From: Escherichia phage vB_Eco_ZCEC08
Sequence record: PP213477.1
DNA length: 47,926 bases
Direction: 5' to 3' (one strand)
Below the pieces are notes generated by a model, which worked only from the letters and a program-made list of their open reading frames with translations, was not told where the DNA came from and ran no database searches. Both the position numbers and the translations under genes were made by a program. This document shows, in pieces, positions 22,618 through 35,428 of this stretch; within the stretch, counting starts at the first letter, position 1, and each line of letters begins with the position of its first letter.

Positions 22618-22694
22618 TGGTGGACACGGACGGATTTGAACCTTCAATCAGCCGATTATTAGTCGGTTGCTTTAACCAATTAAGCTACGCGTCC
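22618..22694 (-). tRNA. tRNA-like gene, isotype undetermined (hand fold gives anticodon AAU)
   Basis: minus strand reads GGACGCG-TA-GCTT-AATTGGTTA-AAGC-A-ACCGA-CTAATAA-TCGGC-TGATT-GAAGG-TTCAAAT-CCGTC-CGTGTCC-ACCA: 7-bp acceptor stem (one G.U), 4-bp D stem, T-loop TTCAAAT, encoded CCA; one mismatch each in anticodon and T stems. Confidence 0.5.

Positions 22695-27739: not shown

Positions 27740-27740
<1 letters not shown>
25371..27740 (+). CDS. tail tape measure protein
   Basis: 789 aa; long predicted helical regions; Ala/Thr-rich hydrophobic segment near C-terminus; position. Confidence 0.8.
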
Positions 27741-31544
<3,804 letters not shown>

Positions 31545-31583
31545 TACAATATACATCAAATTCACAAAGGAGCATTTATTATA

Positions 31584-34163
31584 ATGGCTACCACACCAAC
31601 CAACCTGCCTATACCCAGTGAGTCACCAAGGGATTTGAAATTCAATGCGGGGAAAATAGACGAAGTTGTCAACTCTGACGCGCATTACTACACCGATCGC
31701 TTTGGTGTACGCCGATGGACAATTGCTGGATTTCAGTACACCGCAGAAGAAGCTATACGTAAATATGGCTACATCACTATGGACAGCTTCGAAGATGGTG
31801 CGACACTGACGCTTCCCAATCAGACACTGCGTTATGAAGCAAATGGAGAATATTATCGCTGGGATGGTGAGTTACCCAAAGTAGTGCCAGCTGGTTCAAC
31901 TCCAGACAGCACGGGTGAGGTTAAATTAGGAGCTTGGGTTAGTGTTGGTGATGCGTCATTGCGCGCCGATATTGCAAAACCAACCGGAACAAATTTAATT
32001 GGCGCAAAAAACGGGGAAACACTGTCTACAGTCCTGGGTAGTCGTTGGGCTAATTCGGGCGCAGATAAAAAAGAAATTCGTTTTGACCTGCCATTACTAT
32101 TCCCAGATTACGATGCGATTCTGGCGGCACACCCTGACTGGACGTTTATTTATCCAGGGTCATTCTGTATCGGGGATGATGGCAAAATCTATATTGCATA
32201 CGGCCCAAGTAATAACGCAGCGACGGAACGTTTCGTTGTAGTTTACTCAGGGGAAGGTGAATACTTAGGGTATCTCCAGACTAATAATGGAGGCACCGGG
32301 GTAAATGGTTCTGCGGTATCCGAGGGGATTATCGTAACCAATTACTATGGTTCACTTAAGTTATTCCTGGGATCCTACGATGGTAACTTAGCTGAGTTTG
32401 ATATCTCAGCGGTGACCTACGGCACCACGATTAGCTATACAGCCTTGCATCAGGTAGGTCTGTATAACCAGTTCTCCTTCCACAATGGAATGTGGGCAGT
32501 TGAACAGGCCATCCCAGCGTTGGGCATTAACCGCCAACGTAATGCTATTGCGTACTTCAACTCCGCATTTGCATTAACTGGCTTCACGGAATTTTCTCCG
32601 TATGACGCTGGATACATCACGGAAACTACTACTAATTATGGGTCACTTCAAACTAAGCGACAAGCAATCTGTTTAGCTCCTGGTGTTTTGATTATGGCAT
32701 TCGGTGGTGTGTACATTACAGGAACAACTGTAGAAGCGCCTACTAATTATCAGGGGGTAAAAGCGTTCAGCACCGATGGGCACAAAATGGTAGAGGCAGT
32801 AATTCCTCCTACTGGTTTTATTAGTGTCCTGGATGCTAAAGGCTTAACGACTTCTCGTATAGAGAATGAGGGCATCTGCTATTCAAATGGTGAAGTGTTC
32901 ACCTTATGGATCTATAACGACCGAACCACCTCGAATGCGTATACGCATGGAATCCTAATTACCAAAGAGTATTCCAATTTCCCGGACTTGGATTTTTCTG
33001 CGGTGACAACGGTATCCCCAGGTTACGATACCATTCGGATGGCTTCTGGGGTTTATCCACGAATTCTCGCAGGCGACGTACTCTATAACCCTCTGACCGG
33101 TATTGCCATGACTTCGTTGTCAGCAGTATTGGACTTTATGCGATTGTCCGGGCAGAAGGCAGTTACTATCTATACATCAAGCACCGGTCTTACAGACCTG
33201 GCTGGAGTTGCCTACCCAATCGGGATAGAGCTTCATATTAGCAACCTGAATAACCAGAGCTTCTCTATAGATCAGACCGGGCCAACTACCCGTAAAACTG
33301 TTCGTGTTACTTATGACACCTCCGGTTACACAGTAGTTACTGCGGCTACTGGTTTGGAGACTTACCGTTTAACTTTAAACAATACTGACTCTGGGTCTTC
33401 AACTCAGGGGCGTATCGCTGCCAGAGCTTTCGGTAACACAAATTTAACCGAAGCAGAACAGATTCTTGTCCTCGATCAACAAAGTTCCGCATCTGCACAT
33501 TCTCTTATTTTAGGTGGCGGCTCTTCATTATTTAAGAGTGCTACGACTATTAGTTTTGCTACTAATCCGTCGCCCGCAACCCTAGGTGGCACTATTCGAT
33601 GGCGTTTAGATGATACATCTCTACGTCCATACACAGATAATGCTTACAATTTAGGTAATCCATCATTACGTGTGGCTCAAGTATTCGCGGCAATTGGTAC
33701 TATTAATACGTCTGATTCCCGTGAAAAAACTGATCCTTCTGAAATATCGGATGATATCCTTGATGCCTGGGGCGATGTACAGGTGATCACTTATAAGTGG
33801 TTAGCTTCTATCGCATCTAAAGGGGAGGACTCTGCTCGTTGGCATTTTGGGGTAATTGCCCAACAGGTTCGTGACACGTTCATCAAGCATGGATTGGATG
33901 GTACTGCCTTTGGCCTGCTTTGTTACGACGAGTGGGAAGATGAATATGAACCTGAGTTCGTTGATGAGATTGTTACTGTTAATATTGATGGTGTCGATAC
34001 CGAAGTTACCCGTCAAGTGGAAACCGGTAATACCCTACTTACTAGAGCTGCCGGTAATCGCTGGGGCATTCGTCCCGATCAGTGTTTCTGGTTGGAGGCC
34101 GCTTATCAGCGACGCCGCTGTGATCGTATTGAAGAGCGATTAAAAAAACTGGAGGCTAAGTAA
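31584..34163 (+). CDS. tail fibre with C-terminal intramolecular chaperone (peptidase S74-like) domain
   Basis: 859 aa; C-terminal DSREKTDPSEI...WHFGVIAQQV...RLKKLEAK resembles self-cleaving chaperone domains of tail fibres and endosialidases. Confidence 0.65.
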   Translation: MATTPTNLPIPSESPRDLKFNAGKIDEVVNSDAHYYTDRFGVRRWTIAGFQYTAEEAIRKYGYITMDSFEDGATLTLPNQTLRYEANGEYYRWDGELPKVVPAGSTPDSTGEVKLGAWVSVGDASLRADIAKPTGTNLIGAKNGETLSTVLGSRWANSGADKKEIRFDLPLLFPDYDAILAAHPDWTFIYPGSFCIGDDGKIYIAYGPSNNAATERFVVVYSGEGEYLGYLQTNNGGTGVNGSAVSEGIIVTNYYGSLKLFLGSYDGNLAEFDISAVTYGTTISYTALHQVGLYNQFSFHNGMWAVEQAIPALGINRQRNAIAYFNSAFALTGFTEFSPYDAGYITETTTNYGSLQTKRQAICLAPGVLIMAFGGVYITGTTVEAPTNYQGVKAFSTDGHKMVEAVIPPTGFISVLDAKGLTTSRIENEGICYSNGEVFTLWIYNDRTTSNAYTHGILITKEYSNFPDLDFSAVTTVSPGYDTIRMASGVYPRILAGDVLYNPLTGIAMTSLSAVLDFMRLSGQKAVTIYTSSTGLTDLAGVAYPIGIELHISNLNNQSFSIDQTGPTTRKTVRVTYDTSGYTVVTAATGLETYRLTLNNTDSGSSTQGRIAARAFGNTNLTEAEQILVLDQQSSASAHSLILGGGSSLFKSATTISFATNPSPATLGGTIRWRLDDTSLRPYTDNAYNLGNPSLRVAQVFAAIGTINTSDSREKTDPSEISDDILDAWGDVQVITYKWLASIASKGEDSARWHFGVIAQQVRDTFIKHGLDGTAFGLLCYDEWEDEYEPEFVDEIVTVNIDGVDTEVTRQVETGNTLLTRAAGNRWGIRPDQCFWLEAAYQRRRCDRIEERLKKLEAK

Positions 34164-34389
34164 TGCATGATTTTCCCCATTATTACATGCGGGGGCCGCT
34201 GTCATTATCCAAAGCGGAATTGGCATTGTGTTAGGTATGTGGGGTGCAGGAGGCGCGCCAATATACCTTGGTGGGGTGGATTCGACTGGCGAGCATGGGA
34301 CTTACCTAGTCTATTGGATTAGTTAGTACCAGTGTTAGCATATACTGTAGTTTGGGTTATTACGGCTTATATTTCCTAACAATAATCAC

Positions 34390-34412
34390 TAAACCCCGCT
34401 TCGGCGGGGTTA
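34390..34412. terminator. bidirectional terminator candidate
   Basis: CCCCGC-TTCG-GCGGGG then TTAGTTTTATC, between convergent tail fibre and SSB genes. Confidence 0.5.
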
Positions 34413-34421
34413 GTTTTATCA

Positions 34422-34910
34422 TCAGAACGGAATGTCGTCGTCGAAGTCCATCGGAGGCTCGTTGCCTCCTTGTGGGCTTTGTTGTTTTGGTGGCTGCTGT
34501 TGCTGTCGTTGCGGTTGCTGCCCTGATTGCTGGCGTGGTTGCTGACCAGAATCGTCACGTTTACCACCAAGCATCTGCATGACGCCGCCAATCTGCGGAA
34601 TGACAATCTCAGTGGTGTATTTGTCCACACCGTTGCTGTCAGTCCACTTACGAGTGCGCAGTTGGCCTTCGATATAAACCTGCGAGCCTTTGCGAAGGTA
34701 TTCTCCTGCAACTTCCGCAAGTTTTCCAAAGATGACCACGCGATGCCATTCAGTCTGTTCTTTCTTTTCTCCTGTCTGCTTATCTTTCCATTGCTCAGAT
34801 GTTGCAACAGAAAGGTTGGCAATTGAAGAGCCTGATGCTGAATATTTAACTTCAGGGTCGTTACCAACTCGACCAAGGATTATGCACTTATTAATACCAA
34901 TCGAAGACAT
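34422..34910 (-). CDS. ssb: single-stranded DNA-binding protein
   Basis: OB-fold N-terminus, Gln/Pro-rich linker and acidic tail ending DDDIPF. Confidence 0.9.
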
Positions 34911-35428
34911 TACTTGAATCTCCCGTTTTTATCTCTTAATCTGCCATTATGATTCTCTGTGGCGTGTAATGATGCGTGCTCTGACTTCGTCATAAGCATT
35001 AGGTTACTTGGATGGTTGTTTGTTTTATCATGGTCTATATGATGAACGCATTCATTGTGAAACAACCTCCTCCCAATAATGCCTTCCATAACTACGACAT
35101 GCTCTCCTCTTCCTTTGTTTTCACCCATAGTTATCTCGACATAACCATTCGGTTTTACAGAGCGACCCTTGCCAACTCCTTTCTTTGATTTTGATATATT
35201 TTGCTTCCATTCTTCAGTAAACTTTCGTTTTTTACCCCTAAGTCCTGAACCAAGTCTTCCCTCTGCGGCAGCAATTCTTATTGCATCTCCTCTGCTTCTC
35301 AATATTCCGGCTTTCTTAAATCTAAACCTCAATGTTGACATGGCTATTCCTGTTTCATTGGAGATTTGAGGGATGCTCATGCCAGACAAATACATATCAA
35401 ACTCATTCATATGCACCTCCTTGTGCAA
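34910..35428 (-). CDS. HNH homing endonuclease
   Basis: C-terminal [23 protein letters not shown]; N-terminal helix-turn-helix-like region. Confidence 0.7.

Follow-up and report, generated by a model that had tools for sequence, protein, structure and literature searches.

A tailspike precursor of Escherichia phage vB_Eco_ZCEC08 with a Peptidase_S74 chaperone, a predicted self-cleavage site and a central propeller module unlike that of endosialidases

Intramolecular chaperones of the S74 type, for which a Ser-Lys dyad and a folding-sensor logic have been stated (PMC3742443), form the C-termini of several phage appendages. In K1F endosialidase (3GW6; PF13884; MEROPS S74) the chaperone follows a stalk, and the cargo in front of both is a GH58 sialidase propeller. 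In the L-shaped fibre pb1 of T5 (4UW8; mature form 4UW7) the receptor-binding tip lies directly before the cleavage site. For the opposite end of such proteins the Shigella siphophage Sf11 (9OCC) provides a reference: its gp13 is an Sf6/P22-like tailspike of 585 amino acids, present as six trimers per virion, and residues 4–59 were modelled bound to the distal tail protein gp17, with helices that bundle with its adaptor helix (PMC12724387). Further relatives in terms of fold are the staphylococcal receptor-binding proteins of phi11 (Gp45, 5EFV) and 80alpha (6V8I), in which a propeller 'platform' is followed by a tower-like domain. Skatevirus-like phages, finally, are described as having a single tailspike, encoded directly 3' of a J-like hub gene (PMC11990801).

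How does the tailspike locus of vB_Eco_ZCEC08 compare with these systems? The window, that is, the whole analysed stretch of 47,926 nucleotides (PP213477.1), contains an open reading frame that the original prediction had described as a tail fibre gene. The frame is real: it runs on the + strand from an ATG to a stop codon over exactly 31584–34163 and encodes 859 amino acids with a computed mass of 93.7 kDa. In the published genome the gene would be ORF60 (PMC12001532). Its product is indeed a receptor-binding protein with a chaperone, but tailspike or receptor-binding protein is a better name than fibre, because the protein has Tail_spike_N near its start and a propeller of globular shape. 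A search of NCBIfam returned no match for it, and protein WEV89109.1 of phage ST1UNAM is 99.1% identical. We read the gene, with a probability of roughly 0.85, as encoding the single tailspike-type receptor-binding protein of a Skatevirus-like siphophage, made as a five-part precursor whose chaperone releases itself. The parts of the precursor and the surrounding features are the following:

27740..28213, + strand: distal tail protein of 157 aa with adaptor helix (PDB 9OCC chain C, Sf11 gp17, E 8.7e-101)
31567..31572, + strand: Shine-Dalgarno-like AAGGAG, 11 nt 5' of the tailspike ATG (read from the sequence)
31584..34163, + strand: complete tailspike / receptor-binding protein gene, 859 aa (ORF and translation)
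31584..31751, + strand: lineage-specific N-terminal anchor, aa 1–56 (match to PDB 9OCC chain G; Sf11 gp13 helices)
31761..31952, + strand: Tail_spike_N domain (TSP1/Gp66-type), aa 60–123 (Pfam PF18668, E 1.4e-19)
32067..33338, + strand: beta-propeller and small alpha/beta tower-like domain, aa ~162–585 (AF2, Foldseek, BFVD)
33339..33710, + strand: stalk, presumed triple beta-helix, aa ~586–709 (homology to the endosialidase / T5 fibre stalk)
33708..33713, + strand: predicted autocleavage site, codons Thr709-Ser710 (alignment to 3GW6, T5 chain ends)
33711..34160, + strand: Peptidase_S74 intramolecular chaperone, aa 710–859 (sequence matches, invariant residues, AF2, Foldseek)
34392..34411, no strand assigned: GC-rich hairpin AACCCCGCTTCGGCGGGGTT where the tailspike and ssb genes converge (terminator scan and sequence)

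The hairpin is probably a terminator, a call weakened by the fact that such sites are no commoner in the scanned region than in shuffled sequence.

The extreme C-terminus of the tailspike is clearly a Peptidase_S74 intramolecular chaperone and an ordinary member of this known family. A chaperone-like domain had been proposed for the last approximately 130 residues, from DSREKTDPSEI (residues 711–721) to the terminal RLKKLEAK; the resemblance stands and greatly exceeds chance, while the length has to be corrected to 150 residues counted from Ser710. The HMM search suggested as a check is positive, as PF13884 matches residues 710–771 at 54.3 bits (gathering score 22; E 1.6e-14) and is covered in full (profile positions 1–58 of 58). 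Solved chaperones match as well: 3GW6 from K1F aligns with residues 675–859 (E 5.4e-38), 3GUD from GA-1 gives E 3.9e-21, and 4UW8 from T5 matches in stalk and chaperone (E 2.8e-16). The domain opens with S710-D-S-R-E-K715, Ser and Lys being five residues apart (S-D-x-x-x-K), and as in K1F both members of the dyad are in place, with Ser710 aligned to position 122 and Lys715 to Lys127 of 3GW6. Among 14 full-length homologues, the most distant at 37% identity, Ser710, Asp711 and Lys715 never vary, and the same holds for Ser710, Lys715, Arg752 and His754 among 38 sequences. The AF2 model of this part reaches a pLDDT above 90 over residues ~720–859. Its modelled order of elements (helical cap or short helices, long beta-hairpin arms, C-terminal helix) is characteristic of S74 chaperones and equals that of K1F, and a Foldseek search at E <0.01 returned 3GW6, 3GUD, 4UW8 and 7DC3 only, all of them solved chaperone structures. 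Since such a domain is textbook, this part of the result mainly confirms routine annotation.

Can the processing of the precursor be read from these relatives as well? The mature T5 fibre chains 4UW7 and 5AQ5 stop exactly opposite tailspike residue 709. The cut is predicted between Thr709 and Ser710, just N-terminal to this serine, which is the nucleophile, and would yield a mature spike of 76.4 kDa and a released fragment of 150 aa and 17.3 kDa. On the model of K1F endosialidase, the L-shaped fibre of T5 and the appendages of GA-1/phi29, assembly would start with the three C-terminal domains, which would then serve as a template for the stalk to trimerise and fold. Once the fold is correct, Ser710 would come to lie next to Lys715, whereupon the Thr709-Ser710 bond would be cut, the 17.3 kDa chaperone would depart and a kinetically stable trimer of 76.4 kDa chains would stay behind. 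It is purely from homology that we infer the autoproteolysis, and the cut position, the chaperone requirement, the stoichiometry of the spike and its receptor are to be taken as equally indirect.

Alternatively, no self-cleavage might take place, and the S74-like domain would remain on the spike in the virion as a tip with a structural or binding role. The deposited sequence of a related tail spike, PDB 9VVR, does include the homologous C-terminal region, although this alone is uninformative on processing. We consider an attached domain improbable, as no homologue examined deviates in the nucleophile Ser, the general-base Lys or the residues flanking them, a constancy that would be surprising unless catalysis is under selection; moreover, the similarity to 3GW6 is close and spans the whole domain. 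With self-release as the preferred reading, the spike in the virion is predicted at 76 kDa, not 94 kDa, and recombinant constructs are predicted to need residues 710–859 for folding. In the literature on the relatives ST1UNAM, U8, HC6 and PBM-3, no receptor or processing data were found.

The stalk in front of the cut also leads to the endosialidases. BLASTP aligns residues 566–859 at 33% identity with the stalk and chaperone of P0015, a true endosialidase from the same phage group, and PDB entries 7Y5S, 4UW7 and 5AQ5 also match the stalk region. The stalk is presumed to be a triple beta-helix whose folding is nucleated by the chaperone; we count this architecture as assumed, because the monomer AF2 model is of low confidence here (pLDDT <50) and uninformative, and because the match of Pfam End_tail_spike (PF12219) to residues 566–709 is below threshold (15.5 bits against 25). 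The order of propeller, stalk and chaperone is the one found in K1F endosialidase, whereas in T5 pb1, which matches in stalk and chaperone, the receptor-binding tip adjoins the cleavage site.

Could the tailspike then be a genuine endosialidase, an endo-N-acetylneuraminidase with K1 polysialic acid as the substrate that it degrades? Its stalk and chaperone are homologous to their endosialidase counterparts, and relatives in GenBank carry this product name. The O1:H7 ST95 lineage of avian pathogenic E. coli is often K1-encapsulated. A phage with a 96% identical cassette was isolated on avian pathogenic E. coli of this very type (PMC12697173), and for vB_Eco_ZCEC08 itself ORF60 was assigned as endosialidase, plaques with halos were reported and activity on colominic acid is discussed (PMC12001532). 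Against this stands the centre of the protein. Pfam searches at E up to 1 give no End_beta_propel (PF12217), End_beta_barrel (PF12195) or End_N_terminal (PF12218), all three of which are carried by genuine endosialidases with the same N-terminal anchor (P0015–P0024). BLASTP against one genuine endosialidase aligns residues 1–135 and 566–859 only and leaves the centre unaligned. The centre is without a PDB sequence match; as modelled, it is similar to receptor-binding proteins of staphylococcal phages, and there is no endosialidase among its top 50 fold matches. The six-bladed sialidase propeller with its inserted beta-barrel and the endosialidase N-terminal domain are hence absent by Pfam, BLASTP and fold search.

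Because the central module is a different receptor-binding module, unrelated to the GH58 propeller of K1F, the endosialidase label is unsupported, and we regard it as extremely unlikely to be correct. The name appears to derive from the stalk and chaperone alone, a case of a stalk-plus-chaperone match propagating a wrong enzyme name. Correcting it is the more useful outcome of the analysis: vB_Eco_ZCEC08, a therapeutic candidate, and about 10 relatives in GenBank bear the label of endosialidase carriers. With another, uncharacterised propeller module in the place of the catalytic part, expectations about receptor and host range change.

What, then, occupies the centre? That the receptor-binding part lies upstream of the predicted cleavage site had been anticipated, and AF2, Foldseek and BFVD now place a propeller module there, at residues ~160–585. 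The AF2 model of this module (pLDDT 84.7, pTM 0.83) has about 20 strands before the tower, consistent with five blades. In the PDB, Foldseek ranks three receptor-binding proteins of S. aureus phages highest, 6V8I, 5EFV and 9M7X (E 2e-11 to 1e-9), the best being of the phi11 Gp45 type (E 2e-11, TMq 0.45), and the top BFVD match is the tail fibre of Staphylococcus phage vB_SscM-1 (TMq 0.80). As modelled, the tailspike shares with phi11 Gp45, 80alpha and the vB_SscM-1 fibre / phrog_22693 the succession of propeller platform and tower-like domain. Identity to phi11 is only 12–13%, and the tailspike anchor lacks a coiled-coil stem. In contrast to the staphylococcal proteins, the tailspike adds an endosialidase-type stalk and chaperone, and its hosts are Gram-negative.

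On the level of sequence, the module has no Pfam family and no PDB match, and phrog_22693 matches residues 164–582 (E 1.2e-26). The name of this profile, "glycerophosphoryl diester phosphodiesterase", was dropped as a function: the match comprises profile positions 443–853 of 968, and this partial coverage, together with the lack of a Pfam family in the matched region, suggests that the name probably concerns another part of the phrog_22693 proteins. An exhaustive search found 237 cluster representatives that match the module, a family for which exhaustive searching was needed, as a word-indexed search for homologues gave 5 proteins only when the central domain was the sole query. Compared with PDB sequences, the family profile retrieves stalk and chaperone entries only, neither phi11 nor any propeller, and the link to phi11 therefore holds at the fold level only. 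An S74 domain is found in just 15 of 61 propeller-family representatives, so the propeller as such does not depend on this chaperone.

The modelled module is presumed to be the receptor-binding or depolymerase part of the spike. In line with the proposal for phi11 Gp45, its role might be limited to binding a surface glycan, without depolymerase activity; the closest solved folds are receptor-binding proteins with no enzyme activity shown (PMC4901313). Such a purely binding role is plausible, if somewhat short of an even chance. Against it speak the halos reported around vB_Eco_ZCEC08 plaques (PMC12001532), the enzymatic tailspikes ascribed to Skatevirus-like phages (PMC11990801) and the presence of GH43 glycosidases, which have five-bladed propellers, among the weaker Foldseek matches. 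In addition, the 61 divergent representatives of the family all have Lys358, Gln360, Glu427 and Glu429, as would also be expected of an active site.

The wider distribution of the module allows a more tentative thought. Residues 57–859 form a cassette that recurs at 92–96% identity in T7-like and N4-like podophages, and the similarity to the podophage spikes begins only at residue 56/57. This inter-family cassette opens with Tail_spike_N. Possibly, though we would call it speculative, the central module represents an uncharacterised class of surface-glycan depolymerase, common to staphylococcal myophage fibres and enterobacterial phages and acting on a glycan shared by E. coli and Salmonella; jointly with this, and with the same reserve, the propeller might move together with stalk and chaperone as a ready-made cassette among siphophages, T7-like and N4-like phages.

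In front of the cassette lies the lineage-specific anchor, for which Sf11 offers a close counterpart. Chain G of 9OCC (gp13) matches residues 1–150 nearly identically (E 3.6e-67), with Lys19 conserved; the match ends at about residue 150 and does not include the C-terminal domain. Within this stretch PF18668 scores 70 bits against a cutoff of 25, and the Tail_spike_N region also matches the PDB tailspikes 4OJ5, 5W6H and 6NW9. Docking of the mature trimer would use its N-terminal helices: the adaptor helix in the distal tail protein is predicted to hold the spike N-terminus, and a docking mechanism as in Sf11 is expected. The partners are conserved too: the distal tail protein aligns with gp17 residues 1–155, its acidic adaptor helix keeps Glu129, Glu136 and Glu147 and has Asp in place of Glu152, and the hub protein matches gp14. 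Unlike the protein encoded at 27740–28213, the distal tail protein of Sf11 carries an extra appendage of about 300 amino acids.

The spike gene, coding for a tailspike or receptor-binding protein, runs from ATG to stop at 31584-34163 (+), exactly where the original prediction had placed it. It encodes 859 residues and has an AAGGAG Shine-Dalgarno sequence 11 nt 5' of its ATG. The two strings quoted from the protein are DSREKTDPSEI at residues 711-721 and RLKKLEAK at the C-terminal end. The Pfam profile Peptidase_S74 ("chaperone of endosialidase") matches residues 710-771 over its full length (E 1.6e-14, 54.3 bits vs a cutoff of 22). The chaperone proposed for the C-terminus is thus found by HMM, and it is backed by PDB sequence matches: the K1F endosialidase intramolecular chaperone 3GW6 on residues 675-859 (E 5.4e-38), the GA-1 neck appendage chaperone 3GUD (E 3.9e-21) and the T5 L-shaped fibre 4UW8 (E 2.8e-16). 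In an AF2 model of residues 560-859 the chaperone part has a pLDDT > 90, with short helices, long beta-hairpins and a terminal helix. A Foldseek search of this model against the PDB returns only 3GW6, 3GUD, 4UW8 and the MyRF ICA domain 7DC3, followed by noise. This interpretation of the C-terminus is supported, and the spike is an ordinary further case of the well-known S74 family.

Can the cleavage site be located? Aligned with K1F 3GW6, the dyad positions coincide: Ser710 of the spike pairs with chain position 122 and Lys715 with Lys127, which correspond to Ser911 and Lys916 of endoNF. The residue facing Ser710 in 3GW6 is Ala, which fits this entry being the S911A mutant; the natural endosialidase P0015 has Ser at this site. 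The 4UW7 and 5AQ5 chains, from the mature, cleaved T5 fibre, stop exactly opposite residue 709. Across 14 full-length homologues, with identities down to 37%, Ser710, Asp711 and Lys715 never vary; the same holds for Ser710, Lys715, Arg752 and His754 in a set of 38 sequences with varied central domains. From these alignments we infer self-cleavage at Thr709|Ser710, with a computed mature chain of 76.4 kDa and a released fragment of 17.3 kDa. At 150 residues, this predicted fragment is somewhat longer than the approximately 130 first estimated.

In the S74 proteins of K1F, GA-1/phi29 and T5, trimerisation of the C-terminal domains provides a template for the stalk, and the right fold assembles a Ser-Lys site whose self-excision leaves a stable trimer. 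The dyad and the idea of a folding sensor have been restated (PMC3742443). In the spike, the C-terminal domains would likewise trimerise and then template the stalk (residues ~586-709); once properly folded, this would assemble the Ser-Lys site, and the chaperone would cut itself off at Thr709|Ser710, leaving a stable spike trimer.

Docking of the mature spike may then follow the Shigella siphophage Sf11, with the distal tail protein as its partner. The cryo-EM structure of the Sf11 tail, 9OCC, includes the tailspike gp13, with which residues 1-150 of the spike align at E 3.6e-67; Pfam finds Tail_spike_N on residues 60-123. Six gp13 trimers sit on the Sf11 tail tip, where helices of gp13 residues 4-59 bundle with an adaptor helix supplied by gp17, the Sf11 distal tail protein, and Lys19 forms salt bridges in this contact (PMC12724387). 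Lys19 is kept in the spike. The distal tail protein (27740-28213 (+), 157 aa) aligns with gp17 residues 1-155 and keeps Glu129, Glu136 and Glu147, with Asp at position 152. Compared with gp17, which has 457 aa, this protein retains the adaptor helix but has none of the large appendage that has been described at the C-terminus of the Sf11 protein. An 829-aa gene upstream is a homologue of the gp14 hub.

The central domain (residues 155-600) has neither a Pfam family nor a PDB sequence match, and an exhaustive search collected 237 cluster representatives with E up to 0.001. Its AF2 model (pLDDT 84.7, pTM 0.83) has ~20 beta-strands and, after them, a small alpha/beta domain. Among PDB folds it best resembles receptor-binding proteins from three S. 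aureus phages, 80alpha, phi11 and NF5 (E 2e-11 to 1e-9); among viral models the Staphylococcus phage vB_SscM-1 tail fibre comes first (TMq 0.80, 21% identity), in agreement with a phrog_22693 match of the spike. In phi11 Gp45 a five-bladed propeller "platform" is followed by a "tower" (PMC4901313). The link to phi11 is at the level of fold only, since a profile of the central family did not detect it among PDB sequences. Based on the model, residues ~162-585 (32067-33338) would form a propeller module resembling that in receptor-binding proteins of staphylococcal phages. Lys358, Gln360, Gly374, Gly391, Glu427, Glu429 and Gly456 are invariant in 61 divergent representatives of the family, which suggests a ligand or active site. 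A depolymerase is tentatively favoured over a pure binder, because plaques of vB_Eco_ZCEC08 are reported to have halos (PMC12001532) and the tailspikes of Skatevirus-like phages have been described as enzymatic (PMC11990801).

The published name of the spike is endo-N-acetylneuraminidase (PMC12001532), a label its GenBank relatives also bear. The endosialidase propeller, barrel and N-terminal domain were not found by Pfam even with E up to 1; all three are present in genuine endosialidases with the same anchor (P0015-P0024). BLASTP against one of these aligns residues 1-135 at 87% and 566-859 at 33% identity, and nothing between 135 and 566. Lacking these three Pfam domains, with a centre devoid of BLASTP similarity to an endosialidase and a modelled fold closest to receptor-binding proteins of staphylococcal phages, the spike is probably misnamed. 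The name appears to derive from stalk and chaperone alone. Of the 61 central-family representatives, 15 carry S74; in the others the domains are those of various phage tail proteins, for example BppU_N, the N-terminus of the T7 fibre and Mtd_N.

With the gene already deposited and published under another enzyme name, the added value is modest: a corrected central-domain assignment and a cassette common to three phage families. The spike is 99.1% identical to its counterpart in the close relative ST1UNAM. The T7-like Kayfunavirus vB_EcoP-U8 has a spike with 91.8% identity to residues 56-857, and one from the N4-like Gamaleyavirus PBM-3 reaches 96.3% over residues 57-859. By sequence comparison only the first ~56 residues are lineage-specific, since the remainder is ~92-96% identical in podophage spikes.

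Locations of the cassette (92-96% identical)
Window, 31752-34160 (+): spike residues 57-859
Locus L002, 2485-5340: cassette
Locus L003, 2632-5310: cassette

Many Skatevirus-like spikes have only the N-terminus in common with this one and carry other centres, among them genuine endosialidase, pectate-lyase-like, SGNH and BNR domains. This pattern is the modular exchange of receptor-binding proteins familiar in phages (PMC10408124). The recorded hosts of cassette-bearing phages include Salmonella as well as E. coli, a hint that the two genera may have a receptor in common.

The genome (47,926 bp, GC 46.53%) is nearest to ST1UNAM, HC6, 6947 and HC8A in the databases; remoter kin are the Skatevirus-like siphophages Bas77-81, Skate, IME207 and Sf11 (PMC11990801). 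Gene order around the spike agrees with that published: ORF59 tail protein, ORF60 spike, ORF61 DNA-binding protein and ORF63 recombinase (PMC12001532). The spacer of 258 nt that follows the spike gene (34164-34421) contains no convincing ORF and ends in a GC-rich hairpin (34392-34411), placed between spike and ssb, which are convergent. Further on, a 172-aa HNH_3 endonuclease ORF (34910-35428 (-)) separates ssb from an AAA_24 recombinase-like gene; it looks like a homing-endonuclease insertion, as the two genes directly adjoin in ST1UNAM. An NlpC/P60 domain is encoded by a 188-aa ORF (28559-29125 (+)) that overlaps the ORFs on both sides and whose real start is therefore probably further downstream; the matching ST1UNAM stretch, 29067-29439, has no annotated gene. 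The sole tRNA (22618-22694 (-)), on the strand opposite to the longer ORFs of its region, is called tRNA-Ile with anticodon AAT, which is unusual in bacteria and phages.
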